From a virus (Duplodnaviria > Heunggongvirae > Uroviricota > Caudoviricetes): 23,498 bases of DNA. A program made the translations under genes and the position numbers. The notes under the pieces are model-generated. The model worked only from the letters and a program-made list of their open reading frames with translations. It was not told the DNA's origin and did no database searches. The stretch is taken from the IMG/VR virus record IMGVR_UViG_2537561944_000018. One strand, written 5' to 3'. Position 1 is the stretch's first letter. Each line of letters starts with the position of its first letter. Shown piece by piece: positions 3,215 to 23,498 of the stretch.

Positions 3215-3291
3215 TGGCGCGTTGTAGTGGAGTCGAACCACTGACCGATTGCTTAGAAGGCAATTGCTCTGTCCGACTGAGCTAACAACGC
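3215..3291 (-). tRNA. tRNA-Arg (anticodon UCU), CCA encoded
   Basis: 77-nt cloverleaf: acceptor GCGTTGT/ACAACGC, D-arm GCTC..GAGC, anticodon stem ATTGC/GCAAT with loop CTTCTAA, T-arm AGTGG-TTCGACT-CCACT. Confidence 0.9.
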
Positions 3292-3304
3292 ATGATGCTG
3301 ATAA

Positions 3305-3381
3305 TGGACCGCCATCGGGGACTTGAACCCCGCGCAGCCAGCTTCGAAGGCTGGCGCTCTGTCCCGATGAGCTAATGGCGG
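3305..3381 (-). tRNA. tRNA-Arg (anticodon UCG), CCA encoded
   Basis: 77-nt cloverleaf: anticodon stem CCAGC/GCTGG with loop CTTCGAA, T-loop TTCAAGT; acceptor pairs CCGCCAT with ATGGCGG (C1-G72). Confidence 0.8.
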
Positions 3382-3390
3382 TATGTGATA

Positions 3391-3466
3391 TGGTGGCCCT
3401 TGCTGGATTTGAACCAGCGACCTGGCGATTATGAGTCGCTCGCTCTCACCACTGAGCTAAAGGGCC
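3391..3466 (-). tRNA. tRNA-Ile2-like (anticodon CAU; Met not excluded), CCA encoded
   Basis: 76-nt cloverleaf GGCCCTT...AAGGGCC with anticodon loop CTCATAA; closely resembles E. coli ileX as recalled; first of a three-tRNA cluster as in Stx-type phages. Confidence 0.85.
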
Positions 3467-10566: not shown

Positions 10567-11005
10567 GCTCCTCTCCTTTGATGCGAATGCCAGCGACGCG
10601 TAATGCGTGTTCTAGGTCAATCAGGTAAAGCCAACTGCCATTTTCTTTAGGTATCATGACATGTCGCTCATCTGCATTTATCGGGTGTCCATATCGAAGG
10701 TCGTAGCGAGTCGGTAATTGAACTTCCCGCGCATCCAGTTCAGCAATACGCTTGCTCCCATCAGAGATAACGCCTTCGTAATACTCACGCTGCTCGTTGA
10801 GTTGTGATTTTGCTTCTTCCAGTCCATCCAGCAAACCAGCGATAATATCCGCTTCCCGATGACGGATATGACGCTTAAACGCAGCAAGAGCCGCATCACA
10901 ATCCCGTTCAGCATTTGGGCTGTCCGGGGTAGCCTGATACCACGCCAGCGTCGACTGATAGTTTTGTGCTGCCTCACGAAGCGCCTCATAGTTAACCTCT
11001 CTCAT
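10544..11005 (-). CDS. Ead/Ea22-like protein (paralog), 153 aa
   Basis: N-terminal MREVNYEALREAAQ; AGGAGG 7 nt upstream of ATG 11005; ATGA overlap with the DUF4406 stop. Confidence 0.7.
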   Translation of the reverse strand: MREVNYEALREAAQNYQSTLAWYQATPDSPNAERDCDAALAAFKRHIRHREADIIAGLLDGLEEAKSQLNEQREYYEGVISDGSKRIAELDAREVQLPTRYDLRYGHPINADERHVMIPKENGSWLYLIDLEHALRVAGIRIKGEEHGNKTRG

Positions 11006-11687: not shown

Positions 11688-12024
11688 AAGCGCCTCCGGC
11701 AATCACTTTTCCGATACAACACGGCGGGAAGAATCAGTAATCTGTCGAACAATATCCCGGTGCTTGTTCAGCTCCCGCAGCGCGGCGCAGACTCGCTCCC
11801 ACTTCTGAACCTGACCTTTTGCCCGGCGCAGCTCGCGGTTAGCCACATGCAGCGATGGTAAAATCAGACCATCCGGATGTTTTCTGGTGAACGACGGCTG
11901 TGACTGCACTGTGACCGCCACACTTTCCGTTTTTATTTCTTCCTGTGTTTCTGCTTCCCGTGAGGTAGCCTGAGTTTAACGGACACTCCTTCCTGAAATA
12001 GAATGGCATCAGAAGGAGCTAATA

Positions 12025-12327
12025 ATGAGCAGAAAAACCCAACGTTACTCTAAAGAGTTCAAAGCCGAAGCTGTCAGAACGGGTCTCGAAAATCAACTTT
12101 CGATCAGTGAAGGCGCTTCCCGATTATCTCTTCCTGAAGGCACTTTAGGACAATGGGTTACCGCCGCCAGAAAAGGGCTCGGTACTCCTGGTTCCCGCAC
12201 GGTGGCTGAACTGGAATCTGAAATTCTGCAACTGCGTAAGGCGTTAAATGAAGCTCGCCTTGAGCGAGATATATTAAAAAAAGCAACAGCGTATTTTGCA
12301 CAGGAGTCGCTGAAAAATACGCGTTAA
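12025..12327 (+). CDS. IS3-family transposase OrfA (HTH), 100 aa
   Basis: ATG at 12025; MSRKTQRYSKEFKAEAVR... typical IS3-family OrfA with a leucine-zipper-like C-terminus. Confidence 0.8.
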   Translation: MSRKTQRYSKEFKAEAVRTGLENQLSISEGASRLSLPEGTLGQWVTAARKGLGTPGSRTVAELESEILQLRKALNEARLERDILKKATAYFAQESLKNTR

Positions 12328-13181
12328 TCGAACAATGGCGACAACAATTTCCCATTGAAGCGATGTGTCAGGTATTTGGTGTATCCAGGAGCGGTTATTA
12401 CAACTGGGTACAGCATGAACCCTCAGACAGAAAACAAAGTGATGAGCGGCTAAAACTGGAGATTAAGGTGGCACATATCCGCACTCGCGAAACATATGGA
12501 ACCCGGCGGCTCCAGACGGAGCTGGCAGAGAATGGCATCATCGTTGGTCGTGACCGACTGGCACGTCTTCGTAAGGAGCTAAGGCTACGCTGTAAGCAGA
12601 AACGCAAGTTCAGAGCGACTACGAACTCGAACCACAATCTGCCAGTTGCGCCAAATCTGCTGAACCAGACGTTCGCTCCTACAGCACCAAATCAGGTCTG
12701 GGTGGCGGACCTGACGTATGTTGCCACACAGGAGGGATGGTTGTACCTCGCTGGCATCAAAGATGTTTATACGTGCGAAATTGTCGGCTACGCCATGGGA
12801 GAGCGCATGACAAAAGAGCTGACAGGTAAAGCTCTGTTTATGGCGCTCAGGAGCCAGCGCCCACCTGCCGGGCTAATCCACCACTCTGATCGAGGTTCAC
12901 AGTACTGCGCATACGATTACCGGGTCATACAGGAGCAGTTTGGTCTGAAAACATCAATGTCGCGTAAAGGTAACTGTTACGACAACGCTCCGATGGAAAG
13001 CTTCTGGGGAACGCTGAAAAATGAGAGCCTGAGCCACTATCGTTTTAATAACCGGGATGAAGCCATCTCAGTAATACGGGAATACATTGAGATTTTCTAC
13101 AATCGTCAGCGTCGTCACTCTCGTCTGGGGAATATCTCCCCGGCAGCCTTCAGGGAAAAATATCATCAGATGGCTGCTTAA
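12264..13181 (+). CDS. IS3-family transposase OrfB (DDE/rve integrase domain), made as an OrfAB fusion by -1 frameshift
   Basis: The -1 frame is open from 12264; slippery A AAA AAA G at 12276-12283 inside orfA; DDE motifs (...HHSDRGSQY...YDNAPMES...). Confidence 0.75.
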   Translation, partial: ARYIKKSNSVFCTGVAEKYALIEQWRQQFPIEAMCQVFGVSRSGYYNWVQHEPSDRKQSDERLKLEIKVAHIRTRETYGTRRLQTELAENGIIVGRDRLARLRKELRLRCKQKRKFRATTNSNHNLPVAPNLLNQTFAPTAPNQVWVADLTYVATQEGWLYLAGIKDVYTCEIVGYAMGERMTKELTGKALFMALRSQRPPAGLIHHSDRGSQYCAYDYRVIQEQFGLKTSMSRKGNCYDNAPMESFWGTLKNESLSHYRFNNRDEAISVIREYIEIFYNRQRRHSRLGNISPAAFREKYHQMAA

Positions 13182-13728
13182 AAAAAGAACAAATGGTAGT
13201 GTCCGCTATTGCCAGTACACCTCACCGAACTGGTAACGCAACACCTGCTGGCTGAGGAAAGGCTTTACCATCGGTTTCCGCTACGGATGCAGCTTCCGGC
13301 TCTGCCGGTAAATCAGCGCCCGGTATGCAGTAACGAAATTTACCGCCCTGATTCACGCGAATCAGACGCCCTTTGCTGATTACCATGGCCAGCGATGAAT
13401 TCGCCCGGCGGGAGGTAATCCCGAACATCAGTGCCAGCTCATCCGCCGTTTGTGGGCCATGTTGTTCAATCGCCTCAGTCAGCATTTGCGCTGTCACTTT
13501 CGGTACCGGTGACACCGGTTCACTTTCACCAGCCTGAATCAGCCACCACATCGACCCCTTGTTATCCGCTTCACCGCGGCGCTTCAGTTTCCACAGTTCG
13601 TTGACCGCATCTTCACGGCTGATTCCAAGGCGGGCCGCCACTACCTGTGAAGAGGCTCTTTTCAGTGCTTTCAGTGCGTCAAATACGGTTTCCATTAAAA
13701 TTTCCTCCGACAAAATCGTTTCTCAGAT

Positions 13729-18468: not shown

Positions 18469-18526
18469 TTTCTGGTGACGTTTGGCGGTATCAGTTTTAC
18501 TCCGTGGCTGCTCTGCCGCCCTTTTT
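18469..18526 (+). ncRNA. dicF: DicF small regulatory RNA with its U-tail terminator
   Basis: TTTCTGGTGACGTTTGGCGGTATCAGTTTTACTCCGTGGCTGCTCTGCCGCCC followed by T5; matches the DicF sequence as recalled, with one apparent A-to-G difference; lies just upstream of the dicB homologue. Confidence 0.8.
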
Positions 18527-19163: not shown

Positions 19164-21083
19164 ATGAGTAAAGTCTTTATTTGCGCCGCCATTCCGGACG
19201 AACAGGCAATAAAGGAAGAAGGTGCAGTCGCTGTAGCCACTGCCATTGAAGCCGGTGATGAACGTCGCGCCCGCGCAAAATTTCACTGGCAATTCCTGGA
19301 ACATTATCCGGCTGCTCAGGACTGCGCTTATAAATTTCTTGTTTGCGAGGATAAACCCGGTATTCCCCGCCCTGCCCTCGATTCCTGGGATGCTGAATAT
19401 ATGCAGGAAAACCGCTGGGATGAGGAGTCTGCTTCCTTTGTCCCGGTTGAGACTGAATCAGATCCGATAAACGTCACTTTTGACAAGCTGGCCCCTGAAG
19501 TACAGAACGCTGTCATGGTTAAGTTCGACACATGTGAAAACATCACCGTTGATATGGTGATTAGCGCGCAGGAACTGTTGCAGGAAGACATGGCAACATT
19601 CGACGGACATATCGTTGAAGCGTTGATGAAAATGCCAGAAGTTAACGCCATGTATCCGGAGCTTAAGCTGCATGCCATCGGGTGGGTTAAGCATAAATGT
19701 AAGCCAGGTGCCAAATGGCCCGAAATTCAGGCAGAGATGCGCATCTGGAAAAAACGTCGCGAAGGTGAACGCAAGGAAACCGGAAAATACACGTCTGTTG
19801 TTGATCTCGCCCGCGCCAGAGCCAATCAACAGCACACTGAAAATTCAACAGGAAAAATCAGCCCGGTCATTGCTGCCATTCATCGCGAATACAAGCAGAC
19901 ATGGAAAACACTGGATGACGAACTGGCCTACGCTCTCTGGCCTGGTGATGTGGATGCCGGAAACATTGACGGCAGCATCCATCGCTGGGCAAAAAATGAA
20001 GTTATCGACAACGACCGCGAAGACTGGAAGCGTATCTCGGCATCAATGCGCAAACAGCCTGATGCCCTTCGCTACGACCGCCAGACTATTTTTGGCCTTG
20101 TCCGTGAACGTCCGATCGACATTCACAAAGACCCTGTGGCACTGAACAAATACATTACTGAATACCTGACTACAAAGGGCGTGTTTGAAGATGAAGGAAC
20201 AAATCAGAGCGCAACTGATACTCTCTCGTCGCCAGTACCAGAAACTGATGCAGTGGAAACGGCAATTCCGGACAACGAAAAAACCGAATGCAAAGTGGAA
20301 GTCGAACCATCTGTAGAGCGTGAGGGGCCGTTCTACTTCCTCTTCACCGACAAGGATGGCGAAAAATACGGTCGCGCAAACAAACTTTCTGGTCTGGATA
20401 AGGCACTGGCTGCCGGGGCTACTGAAATCACGAAAGAAGAATATCTTGCCCGCAAAAACGGAACATACACGGACTTACCGCAAAATGTGGATACCGCTGA
20501 AGATTCCGTACAACCGGAGCCGGTAAAAGTTACCGCTGACGAAGTAAACAAAATTATGCAGGCAGCCAATATCAGCCAGCCTGACGCCGATAAATTGCTT
20601 GCTGCATCACGTGGTGAATTTGTTGAAGGGATTAGCGATCCGAATGATCCGAAATGGGTGAAGGGGATTGAAACCTGCGATTCTGTGAACCAGAACCAGC
20701 AAGAATCGGAACAGAACGACCAGAAAACGGAACAAAACAGCCCAAATGCGCAACAAAACGAGCCAGAAACGAAACAGGAGCCGGAAAAAGCCTGCACCGC
20801 CTGCGGTCAGACCGGCGGCGGTAGCTGCCCTGATTGTGGTGCGGTGATAAGTGACGCAACATACCAGGAAATATTCGATGAAGAGAATCAGCCTGAAGTT
20901 CAGGAAAATGATCCGGAGGAAATGGAAGGCACTGCGCATCAGCACAAGGAGAACACTGGCGGCAATCAGCATCATGCCAGCGATAGTGAAACTGGCGAGG
21001 CGTCAGATCCCTTAATTAAGGCGAACGGTCATCATAATCTCACATCACCAGCAGAGCGGGATTCATCTGATGATCGACCTTGA
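19164..21083 (+). CDS. Large YdfE-like protein of unknown function, 639 aa, acidic Q/E/N-rich C-terminus with a Cys4 motif
   Basis: ATG at 19164 with GAGGT upstream; CTACGQTGGGSCPDCG near the C-terminus; occupies the ydfE position after ydfD; no enzymatic motif recognised. Confidence 0.7.
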   Translation: MSKVFICAAIPDEQAIKEEGAVAVATAIEAGDERRARAKFHWQFLEHYPAAQDCAYKFLVCEDKPGIPRPALDSWDAEYMQENRWDEESASFVPVETESDPINVTFDKLAPEVQNAVMVKFDTCENITVDMVISAQELLQEDMATFDGHIVEALMKMPEVNAMYPELKLHAIGWVKHKCKPGAKWPEIQAEMRIWKKRREGERKETGKYTSVVDLARARANQQHTENSTGKISPVIAAIHREYKQTWKTLDDELAYALWPGDVDAGNIDGSIHRWAKNEVIDNDREDWKRISASMRKQPDALRYDRQTIFGLVRERPIDIHKDPVALNKYITEYLTTKGVFEDEGTNQSATDTLSSPVPETDAVETAIPDNEKTECKVEVEPSVEREGPFYFLFTDKDGEKYGRANKLSGLDKALAAGATEITKEEYLARKNGTYTDLPQNVDTAEDSVQPEPVKVTADEVNKIMQAANISQPDADKLLAASRGEFVEGISDPNDPKWVKGIETCDSVNQNQQESEQNDQKTEQNSPNAQQNEPETKQEPEKACTACGQTGGGSCPDCGAVISDATYQEIFDEENQPEVQENDPEEMEGTAHQHKENTGGNQHHASDSETGEASDPLIKANGHHNLTSPAERDSSDDRP

Positions 21084-21612
21084 AACCATGGGAAAAAATC
21101 CTGATGCCCCGATTATCTCAATAGGTGCAATATTTTTCGATCCGCAAACCGGAGAGATGGGGCCAGAATTCAGCAAAACTATCGATCTGGAAACTGCTGG
21201 CGGAGTCATTGATCGGGACACCATTAAGTGGTGGCTGAAACAGTCACGCGAAGCGCAATCCGCCATTCTTACCGATGAAATCCCGTTAGATGATGCACTG
21301 CTGCAATTACGGGAATTTATCGACGAAAACTCCGGTGAATTTTTTGTTCAGGTCTGGGGTAACGGTGCAACTTTCGACAACGTGATTTTACGCCGTTCAT
21401 ATGAACGGCAGGGGATCCCCTGCCCGTGGCGTTACACCAATGATCGCGATGTAAGAACGATGGTTGCTCTGGGACTGGTGATGGATTTCGACGCAAGAAC
21501 GACTATTCCATTCGAAGGTGAACGCCATAACGCTCTGAACGATGCACGTTACCAGGCGAAATACGTTTCAGCCATCTGGCAAAAACTGCTCCCGAGTCAG
21601 GCTGATTTTTGA
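21070..21612 (+). CDS. DEDDh-family (DnaQ-like) 3'-5' exonuclease, 180 aa
   Basis: Exo motifs IDLETMG, WGNGATFD and HNALNDARY; start overlaps the upstream gene by 14 nt. Confidence 0.8.
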   Translation: MIDLETMGKNPDAPIISIGAIFFDPQTGEMGPEFSKTIDLETAGGVIDRDTIKWWLKQSREAQSAILTDEIPLDDALLQLREFIDENSGEFFVQVWGNGATFDNVILRRSYERQGIPCPWRYTNDRDVRTMVALGLVMDFDARTTIPFEGERHNALNDARYQAKYVSAIWQKLLPSQADF

Positions 21613-21679
21613 TGTTCAACCCATATCGCCGCCCACCAGCTATAGTGGCGGCGGTCATGCTGTAAAGGCACGTGACCAC

Positions 21680-21922
21680 ATGTACGAATTAACTCTATCT
21701 CCAGCAGAGATTAAAGAGATCACGAAATACGAGCGATACACAAAACAGCAACACCAGTTAAGACTGCACGGCATCCCATTTGTAATCGGCCCTAAAAACG
21801 AACCCATAGTTCTCCGCAGGGATATTCCACACGGTCTGACAACGATGCCAAAAACATCTGAACTGGTTTCTGCTGAACCCGATTTTGAGGCGCTGAACAA
21901 TGGGAAGACCAAGAAAAAATAA
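21680..21922 (+). CDS. xis: Excisionase-like protein, about 80 aa
   Basis: Internal ATG at 21680; resembles lambda Xis in size and position; 3' end overlaps the int start by 23 nt. Start signals are weak. Confidence 0.55.
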   Translation: MYELTLSPAEIKEITKYERYTKQQHQLRLHGIPFVIGPKNEPIVLRRDIPHGLTTMPKTSELVSAEPDFEALNNGKTKKK

Positions 21923-22277
21923 AAAAGATAATGTACTGCCACCGCGGGTTAGATCGAATGGTTACAGTTACGTGTGGAAACCCGAAGGAAGTACAAGAAG
22001 TATAGGGCTAGGAAGAGTGCGGAAAACCAGCGTAGCTAAAGTCTGGCAAAATTATGAACTGGAAAAAGCAAAACTCCACAACATAATGACCGTAGCTAAA
22101 TTATGGCACATGTTTATGGACTCCCCTGCATTTACAGAACTGGCCCCCCGAACCCAAAAAGATTATCGACAACATCAGAAGGCGTTGCTGATGGTATTCG
22201 GAAAAGTGCTTGCTGATAATGTCAAAACTGAGCAGGTAAGAATTTTCATGGATAAACGAGGGCTTGAGAGCAAGTGA
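21900..22277 (+). pseudogene. int: Tyrosine integrase N-terminal fragment (125 codons), truncated by IS insertion
   Basis: MGRPRKNKKDNVLPPRVRSNGYSYVWKPEGSTRSIGLGR matches the lambda-Int arm-binding N-terminus; the frame ends at TGA 22275-22277, the first 3 nt of the IS terminal repeat. Confidence 0.75.
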
Positions 22278-22316
22278 ACCGCCCCGGGTTTCCTGGAGAG
22301 TATTTTATCTGTGAAC

Positions 22317-23207
22317 TCAGGCTGCCAGATCATTATTTCCGATGGAAGCATAATAAGCTTTTTCTGCTTCTGCCGGAGGAATATGGCCCAGCCTTTCCAG
22401 CAATCGTCGATTGTTATACCAGTCCACCCACGTTAGTGTGGCCAGTTCCACTTCTGTCCGGTTTTTCCAGCTATTACGGTGTATTACCTCCGCTTTGTAA
22501 AGACCATTGATGCTCTCAGCCATCGCGTTGTCATACGAGTCGCCAGTACTCCCTGTTGATGCCAGTAATCCGGCTTCCTTAAGCCGCTGCGTGTAGGCCA
22601 GCGATACATACTGAGAACCTTTATCACTGTGATGGATTGTGCCGGACGGCCGACGGGCCCACAACGCCTGCTCCAGTGCATCCAGCACGAATGTTGTTTC
22701 CATGGATGATGAGACCTGCCATCCCACGATGTATCCGGCGAACACATCAATGATAAACGCCACATAAACGAAGCCCTGCCATGTGCTGACCCAAGTAAAA
22801 TCAGCCACCCACAACTGGTCTGGACGTTCTGCCACGAACTGACGGTTTACGCGGTCGCATGCGGCAACGGCTTTCCGGCTGACGGTAGTGCGGACCTTTT
22901 TACCCCGGAGAACACCGGCAAGCCCCATAACTGCCATGAGACGTGCCACAGTGCATCTGGCCACTCTGATACCTTCCCGTAACAACTGACGCCAGACTTT
23001 ACGCACACCGTATACCTGGTGATTTTCATCGTATACGCGCTGTATCTCTTTCTTCAGCCAGTCATCGTGCTGCGCACGGGCACTGCGTTTATCCGGATGA
23101 TGTCGCTGTTGCTGACAATGGTAATACGTTGACGGGGCAATATGCAGTTCGCTGCATACCGGTCCGACCCCGTACTGCTCACGCAGCTTATCCAGCAGTG
23201 GCATCAT
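22317..23207 (-). CDS. IS629-like transposase OrfB (DDE), about 296 aa from MMPLL
   Basis: DDE/rve motifs (...HHSDKGSQY...YDNAMAES...); the frame stays open upstream to 23297, overlapping orfA for frameshift fusion. Confidence 0.75.
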
Positions 23208-23498
23208 TTTTCCAGAGGCGGTCGAACTCCGCCTTCGCAAAATAAGCGGAAGCCTGGCGAAGGATATCGTTACTGCGGCGCAGTTCACGATTTTCACGTT
23301 CCAGCTCTTTCAGACGCTGACGTTCAGCACTGGTGAGCCCACCATCACCGCCCCCGGTATCCCGCTCATGCTGGCGAACCCAGACACGCAGAGTCTCCGG
23401 CGTACAGCCAATCTTTGGGGCAATGGAACAAATTGCCGCCCACTGTGAGTCATATTCATCCTGACTTTCCAGAACCATACGAATCGCCCGCTGACGGA
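23188..23498 (-). CDS. IS629-like transposase OrfA, 5'-partial (start lies beyond the window)
   Basis: ...[39 protein letters not shown]...[26 protein letters not shown]; HTH and leucine-zipper region of IS3-family OrfA. Confidence 0.75.

Follow-up and report, generated by a model that had tools for sequence, protein, structure and literature searches.

The last part of a 23,498-nucleotide stretch of DNA from a lambdoid prophage (hereafter the window, that is, the whole stretch that was analysed) carries an integrase gene that stops after 125 codons at the border of an insertion sequence, next to a small xis-like gene that is complete. This arrangement raises the question of whether the int gene has been genuinely broken by transposition, whether the event occurred once or many times, and what it means for the ability of the prophage to leave the chromosome.

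The explanation that we favour, and hold to be very probably correct, is an IS629 insertion with duplication of the target AAG that truncates the prophage integrase. In detail, IS629 would have inserted at codon 125/126 of int, duplicating the 3-bp target AAG; with the element lying opposite to int, its terminal TGA would close the int frame at once. The product, Int(1-125), would comprise the arm-binding domain with roughly half of the core-binding domain and would lose every catalytic residue, while the remaining 645 nt of int would be found just past the IS, as in relatives. One ancestral event would then have been passed down an O26-type sub-lineage, and its consequences would be softened or overridden by circumstances found in complete relatives, namely by a second, identical Int with its Xis-like protein, by a rearranged prophage array and by IEE-aided excision of the IS. 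The features of the locus are collected in Table 1.

Table 1. Features around the junction between int and the insertion sequence, in window coordinates
Feature	Position	Strand	Basis or remark
xis-like gene, 80 aa, DUF4224	21680..21922	+	Pfam DUF4224, E 8.9e-9
Truncated integrase	21900..22277	+	Arm-binding domain and part of core-binding domain, then IS-supplied TGA
AAG, left copy of the 3-bp target-site duplication, int codon 125	22272..22274		Comparison with uninterrupted genes
IS629 copy, 1224 of 1310 bp, remainder past the window end	22275..23498	-	99.4% identical to BP-4795 copy, 99.6% to 02E060 copy
IS629 terminal inverted repeat, end downstream of orfB	22275..22301		TGAACCGCCCCGGGTTTCCTGGAGAGT against TGAACCGCCCCGGAAATCCTGGAGACT at the other end
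IS629 orfB, DDE (rve) transposase part	22317..23207 (ORF 22317-23297)	-	Pfam rve, E 2.4e-26; HTH_21, E 3.2e-18
Programmed -1 frameshift region, ALIL pseudoknot	23133..23248	-	Rfam RF01497, 115.7 bits
IS629 orfA, first 11 codons beyond the window end	23188..23498	-	Pfam HTH_Tnp_1

The int-IS junction and the remainder of the gene

Translation of the window gives an int frame of 125 codons whose TGA stop occupies 22275-22277, and these three nucleotides are the first ones of the IS629 terminal inverted repeat. The boundary of the element at 22275 was set by comparison with the uninterrupted gene: the latter reads GAGAGCAAGACCC, and the interrupted form reads GAGAGCAAG/TGAACC...GGTTCA/AAGACCC. 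An earlier note, made from the letters of the window, had described the cut after 125 codons, the origin of the TGA in the end of the IS, the absence of the catalytic domain and the run of the element past the window end. All of these points are borne out, as the open reading frame is confirmed, the junction agrees with the uninterrupted gene, the frame ends at residue 125 in the core-binding domain, and the far junction of the partly contained element lies outside the window. In other words, the catalytic domain, with its R-K-H-R-H-Y residues, is absent within the window, where the int frame stops at residue 125.

Since the far junction, the duplication and the 3' part of int are all outside the window, we infer their presence in this strain from genomes that are 99.9% identical to it. 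In particular, in E. coli 02E060 (locus L001) the IS is 1310 bp long, belongs to the IS3 family, has TG...CA ends with terminal repeats that match at 23 of 27 positions, and is annotated as 'IS3 family transposase, programmed frameshift' with an AL1L pseudoknot. It is flanked on both sides by AAG, the second copy being at 10588-10590, whereas the uninterrupted genes hold a single AAG. Immediately behind the element comes a pseudogene piece of 651 nt described as 'tyrosine-type recombinase/integrase, missing N-terminus', so that the inspection of the sequence past the IS proposed in the earlier note, when run in relatives, finds the remaining 3' portion of int, 645 nt, directly behind the IS and its AAG. 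A megablast of positions 21000-23498 against 5,426 complete E. coli genomes detected the whole stretch, junction included, in 37 of them at 99.7%, and the far-side junction (the int 3' part preceded by 20 nt of IS) at full coverage in 33 complete genomes. The named genomes with the junction, among them RM10386 and RM8426, are O26.

Joining window positions 21900-22274 to L001 10591-11235, with the IS and one AAG removed, yields a reconstructed int of 1020 nt that encodes 339 aa. Along its entire length it shows 100% identity to uninterrupted integrases of O103:H2 12009, 55989, O26 and O111 and 99.9% identity to O157:H7 genes, and 742 genomes cover at least 80% of the query. With respect to ECs_1055 of the Sakai prophage Sp4, 1019 of 1020 nt agree and the protein is identical, including the N-terminal part encoded by the window.

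The family of the integrase is best read from the reconstruction. Submitted to Pfam alone, the 125-aa fragment gives no match, and for this reason the lambda-type assignment, proposed already in the earlier note, is drawn from the reconstructed full-length protein, which can be aligned over its whole length with lambda Int (PDB 1z1b; residues 1-319 against 1-340, E 5.6e-20), arm-binding N-terminus included. Taken alone, residues 1-59 match the lambda Int N-domain (1kjk) at E 0.048, and in the full-length comparison they form part of one unbroken alignment. Pfam places its Phage_integrase domain in the int 3' part only, as seen in the sequence of relatives. Compared with PHROGs, the 125-aa fragment matches integrase families weakly and phrog_22903 strongly (E 1.6e-63), the latter being a family of 107-aa pieces of unknown function; such pieces are N-terminal parts of integrases.

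In the alignment, Int residue 125 corresponds approximately to lambda Int residue 137, inside the core-binding domain, and the catalytic residues all lie C-terminal of the break. Int H289 is opposite lambda H308, a lysine (in FHDIKAKG) is opposite the lambda catalytic Arg311 (in FHELRS), and the R, the K, the second H and the Y are also present in Int, as read from the lambda alignment and from the sequence past its end. As a separate observation, the Sp4-type int with Lys at the R311 position (L001 10588-11235) is widely conserved nonetheless. Because Int(1-125) lacks every catalytic residue, it is predicted to be catalytically dead and the prophage to be incapable of making a working integrase of its own; the same alignment, by placing every catalytic residue beyond the break, upholds the statement of the earlier note that the prophage is probably unable to excise by its own integrase.

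The xis-like gene and the Sp4 module

The xis-like frame is complete and overlaps the start of int by 23 nt. It had been described as an intact xis, and its sequence is indeed identical at 243 of 243 nt to Sakai Sp4 ECs_1056, annotated as 'phage excisionase', while the excisionase role is putative. Among the PHROG 'excisionase' families, the best match of the protein is phrog_1266 (E 1.9e-23). An AF2 model shows a helix-helix-two-strand topology with pLDDT of about 90 over residues 10-50; it was built on a shallow alignment of 16 sequences, because homologue searches gave close or few relatives. Fold searches with this model returned nothing significant, and the protein had no match among PDB sequences at E up to 10. 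The excisionase activity of DUF4224 'xis' proteins has been doubted (PMC2669165). The end of the frame (21917-21922, ...KTKKK before the stop) is three codons shorter than in most homologues (...KTKKKQKR), and the Sakai Sp4 copy is shortened likewise.

Like lambda int and xis, the module comprises a three-domain tyrosine recombinase with an N-terminal arm-binding domain and a small upstream gene that overlaps the int start. It differs from the lambda pair in the low sequence similarity, in the Lys at the position of R311 and in the upstream protein, which belongs to DUF4224 and not to the lambda Xis family. The likeness to the Sakai Sp4 module (ECs_1055 int, ECs_1056 xis, serT next to yccA) is much closer: the Int protein is identical once reconstructed, the xis-like gene is the same at every nucleotide, and the 206 bp behind int, with the 3' half of serT, are common to both. 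In Sakai, however, the module is intact and bounds the prophage at serT, whereas in the window int is interrupted, and in the relatives the module adjoins an attP-like site within an array at wrbA. Circles of Sakai Sp4 have been detected, and Sp4 circularises in Sakai after mitomycin C (PMC2669165).

The IS629 copy

IS629 is a member of the IS3 family that transposes by a copy-out/paste-in mechanism and has IS1203 and IS3411 as iso-forms. In the window, its transposase genes run opposite to int. The name given here to the element rests on the copy annotated as 'OrfA/OrfB of IS629' by the depositors of phage BP-4795, taking at least 95% nucleotide identity as the threshold. The window IS shows 7 differences from that copy in 1224 positions and 5 differences from the copy in 02E060, and the full copy of 02E060 (L001) is 99.8% identical to that of BP-4795. 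Together with the ALIL element and the orfA and orfB domains, this identity substantiates the description as an IS629-like element given in the earlier note. The OrfB protein equals that of the L001 copy over the stretches compared by eye, and the full OrfA was taken from the L001 copy.

Two peculiarities distinguish the copy in the window. The first one is its slippery run, which is A5, as opposed to A6 in three other IS629 copies, owing to a one-base deletion at 23207. With the A5 run, orfA ends in ...LWKNDATAG and orfB lies in the +1 frame, so that a -1 frameshift could not yield OrfAB, if the deletion is real. As all seven indels of the window are homopolymer deletions, A5 is probably a sequencing error; if real, the window copy would need transposase from other copies. 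The second peculiarity is a set of four private substitutions (22755, 22788, 22794 and 22923), which are missing from the same-site copy in relatives, from the BP-4795 copy and from the O157-type copy, and which, judged by eye from the translations, are synonymous in orfB. An O157-type IS629 variant, or a collapsed consensus, was considered as the source of the four substitutions and set aside, as they do not match the O157-type copy.

Strain 11368 and the possible reversal of the insertion

The O26:H11 strain 11368 (NC_013361.1) carries the same prophage in the same place without the IS, and its int gene, 1021 nt long, is annotated as frameshifted. At the position that corresponds to window 22272-22274 (L002 4000-4006), it reads GAGAGCAAAGACC against the intact GAGAGCAAGACC, with the extra A located exactly at the AAG (site sequence GCAAAGACC). 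This +1 A allele occurs in one genome only among the complete genomes. It represents a candidate scar of near-precise IS629 excision, in which 1312 bp would have been removed and not 1313; alternatively, the extra A may have arisen by an independent slip or a sequencing error.

IEE promotes the precise excision of IS3-family elements with gene reactivation, a process that requires an active transposase, and iee is found on SpLE1-like elements in O26:H11 (PMC9397093, PMC9943667, bioRxiv 10.1101/2023.06.07.543989). IEE-promoted excision of IS629 could revert the int insertion. The stronger proposal, namely that the insertion is a reversible switch in which IEE and the IS629 transposase precisely excise the element at low frequency and restore int in a subpopulation, is unlikely. 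Precise removal of IS629, IS1203v and IS600 by an IEE-dependent route restores stx2, bla and lacZ, O26:H11 strains carry iee, and 13-21 places per relative match a half-IS629 query, a rough indication of at least a dozen copies that could supply transposase in trans; the 11368 allele, without the IS and with its extra A at the duplicated AAG, fits a near-precise excision scar. Yet the junction genomes of this lineage include no revertant, and the only candidate excision event, that of 11368, left a frameshift, so that int stayed dead. Moreover, the A5 run at the frameshift site, if real, makes the production of its own OrfAB impossible for the window copy, and a restored Int would bring no obvious benefit, because the prophage has no cognate att pair in relatives.

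A probable single ancestral insertion in an O26-type sub-lineage

The favoured explanation of an IS629 insertion leaves the question of how often it took place. The junction is also present in genomes where the neighbouring prophages are arranged otherwise, and because it persists across these differing arrangements, one old insertion inherited by the sub-lineage is favoured. Most simply, the shared junction would trace back to a single ancestral insertion inherited by an O26-type E. coli sub-lineage. Repeated independent insertions of IS629 into a hot-spot could give the same picture, as the element is very active in EHEC, and the window IS has accumulated four private substitutions with respect to the same-site copy, as compared with only two in 9 kb of flanking prophage. 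These four substitutions, synonymous by eye, could however stem from gene conversion between IS copies. In addition, all junction genomes, of which the named ones are O26, agree in insertion site, orientation and duplication, and the prophage backbone is unchanged even where neighbouring prophages have been rearranged; recurrent insertion is, on balance, a distinctly unlikely origin of the junction.

Events of this kind are familiar. IS629 disruption of prophage genes, integrases included, is documented in EHEC genomes, and for those prophages of Sakai whose int is disrupted, an inability to excise was predicted (PMC2669165). Sakai Sp3, Sp11 and Sp12, with their disrupted integrases, resemble the present case both in the element, which in the relatives has 1310 bp, TG...CA ends, a 3-bp duplication and orfA/orfB with the ALIL signal, and in the outcome, a prophage int split into pseudogene pieces; the target here is different, being the Sp4-type int that is intact in Sakai itself. 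With respect to other IS629 insertions in EHEC prophage genes, this copy differs by its A5 in place of A6, maybe a sequencing error. The exact junction is already contained in dozens of public RefSeq genomes, where it is annotated as a pseudogene. Past a correct annotation, its significance is small, as one more example of how the prophages of EHEC decay and lose their mobility. The shared junction could, in addition, serve to mark the O26-type sub-lineage in the style of IS-printing.

A second integrase and a rearranged prophage array in relatives

The loss of the prophage's own integrase has to be viewed in the context of the other prophages of the same chromosomes. In 31 of the 33 junction genomes, the int 3' part occurs at least once more. 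In 2010C_5028, the second int is complete and lies beside yccA, at a distance of 47 kb from the interrupted gene, from which it departs at 2 nt; it encodes an identical protein and is preceded by an identical DUF4224 protein. Several other junction genomes carry an intact int copy 47-49 kb away. Going by these sequences, most related genomes have a further Sp4-like prophage with an identical Int, a point missed by the earlier note, and since the intact copy resides in a sister prophage, Int could come in trans.

The attachment sites and the array were examined in relatives at L001 11236-11529, L007 28061-29243 and L009-L011. Both prophages share with Sakai the 206 bp that follow int, a stretch that includes the 3' half of serT. 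Beside the interrupted int, the site is made of a P' arm, the 3' half of serT and a P arm (L001 11236-11529), and it is considered attP-like because the 206-bp stretch continues into phage P-arm sequence; 294 bp of this attP-like stretch are common to two differently arranged genomes. At the far end of the prophage, past the tail-fibre genes, no serT core was found within 14 kb in 02E060. In both 02E060 and strain 10159 this end abuts a wrbA remnant (its first 17-20 codons), followed by ymdF, with a serine-recombinase element inserted between the remnant and ymdF in 02E060. On its int side, the prophage of strain 10159 borders the end of a Stx1a prophage that is integrated in wrbA, and the complete serT is found upstream of hyaA, beside the other Sp4-like prophage. 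For this arrangement, a simple tandem formed by Int at serT was considered and dropped, the int side in 10159 being attP-like and the far side, in 10159 and 02E060 alike, being wrbA.

As read from these loci, the prophage of two complete relatives lies within a rearranged array and has no cognate attL/attR pair, and for this reason the broken int would not be the sole obstacle to excision. That int is broken is, in other words, insufficient to predict immobility, as the sister Int, the missing att partners and the excision of the IS also count. Given its extra IS600 and its seven deletions, the strain from which the window derives may differ in its wider genome, that is, in the second int, the array and iee. 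The candidate excision scar of 11368 and the embedded prophage devoid of att partners are mildly interesting by-products of the analysis, and both are located outside the window.

Two further proposals concern the fate of the locus. According to the first one, the system would be dynamic: IEE would at times remove the IS, of which the 11368 scar would be a natural trace, while neighbouring effector- and Stx-prophages that use the same Int would be stabilised by competition of Int(1-125) for the arm sites. We regard such a combination as very unlikely. The second one attributes a new function to the fragment, whose arm-binding domain would occupy arm sites and modulate the excision of the sister prophage in a dominant-negative or stabilising manner. 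The fragment does retain the whole region that aligns with the lambda arm-binding domain (residues 1-64), the P'-core-P site beside it is almost the same as that at the sister prophage, and a PHROG family of such N-terminal pieces exists (phrog_22903, see above). This function is pure inference, however; a break halfway through the core-binding domain, as here, usually makes a protein unstable, and phrog_22903 is more simply understood as a collection of annotated pseudogene fragments, so that we attach hardly any credence to a functional Int(1-125).

Sequence quality and other features of the window

Over the prophage, the window matches its relatives at 99.9%, and it differs from all 5,426 complete genomes searched. 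Compared with the nearest complete genomes, it has seven one-base deletions (140, 191, 16750, 18241, 21046, 21058 and 23207), all of them in homopolymer runs, and no insertions. This pattern points to sequencing or assembly error, and frameshifts anywhere in the window need caution. That the int-IS junction itself is an assembly artefact, with a mis-joined contig or an end at a repeated IS masking a gene that is really intact, is exceedingly improbable: the window does end within the IS, and the seven homopolymer deletions suggest error-prone sequencing or assembly, but 33-37 independently finished genomes have this very junction at the same site and in the same orientation, all with the far junction and the 3-bp duplication.

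The deletions at 21046 and 21058 account for the split of the prophage exonuclease, a single gene of 816 aa in relatives, into two open reading frames (19164-21083 and 21070-21612), the C-terminal piece of which contains an Rv2179c-like 3'-5' exoribonuclease domain.

A second insertion sequence occupies positions 11961-13224 (1264 bp) and is 99.8% identical to an IS600-family copy annotated in 7_56_38A. It sits in the prophage DUF1627 gene, flanked by a 3-bp duplication, CCG, and it is private among the 5,426 complete genomes, because the genomes that otherwise match have none at this site.

Finally, Rfam and ARAGORN locate an STnc100 sRNA at 2273-2445, three tRNAs at 3215-3466 and a DicF RNA at 18470-18521. 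The tRNAs are Arg-UCU, Arg-UCG and one with a CAU anticodon (Ile in RefSeq). Their cluster lies at the position that stx occupies in Stx phages, with TerB-family and DUF3927 genes there instead.
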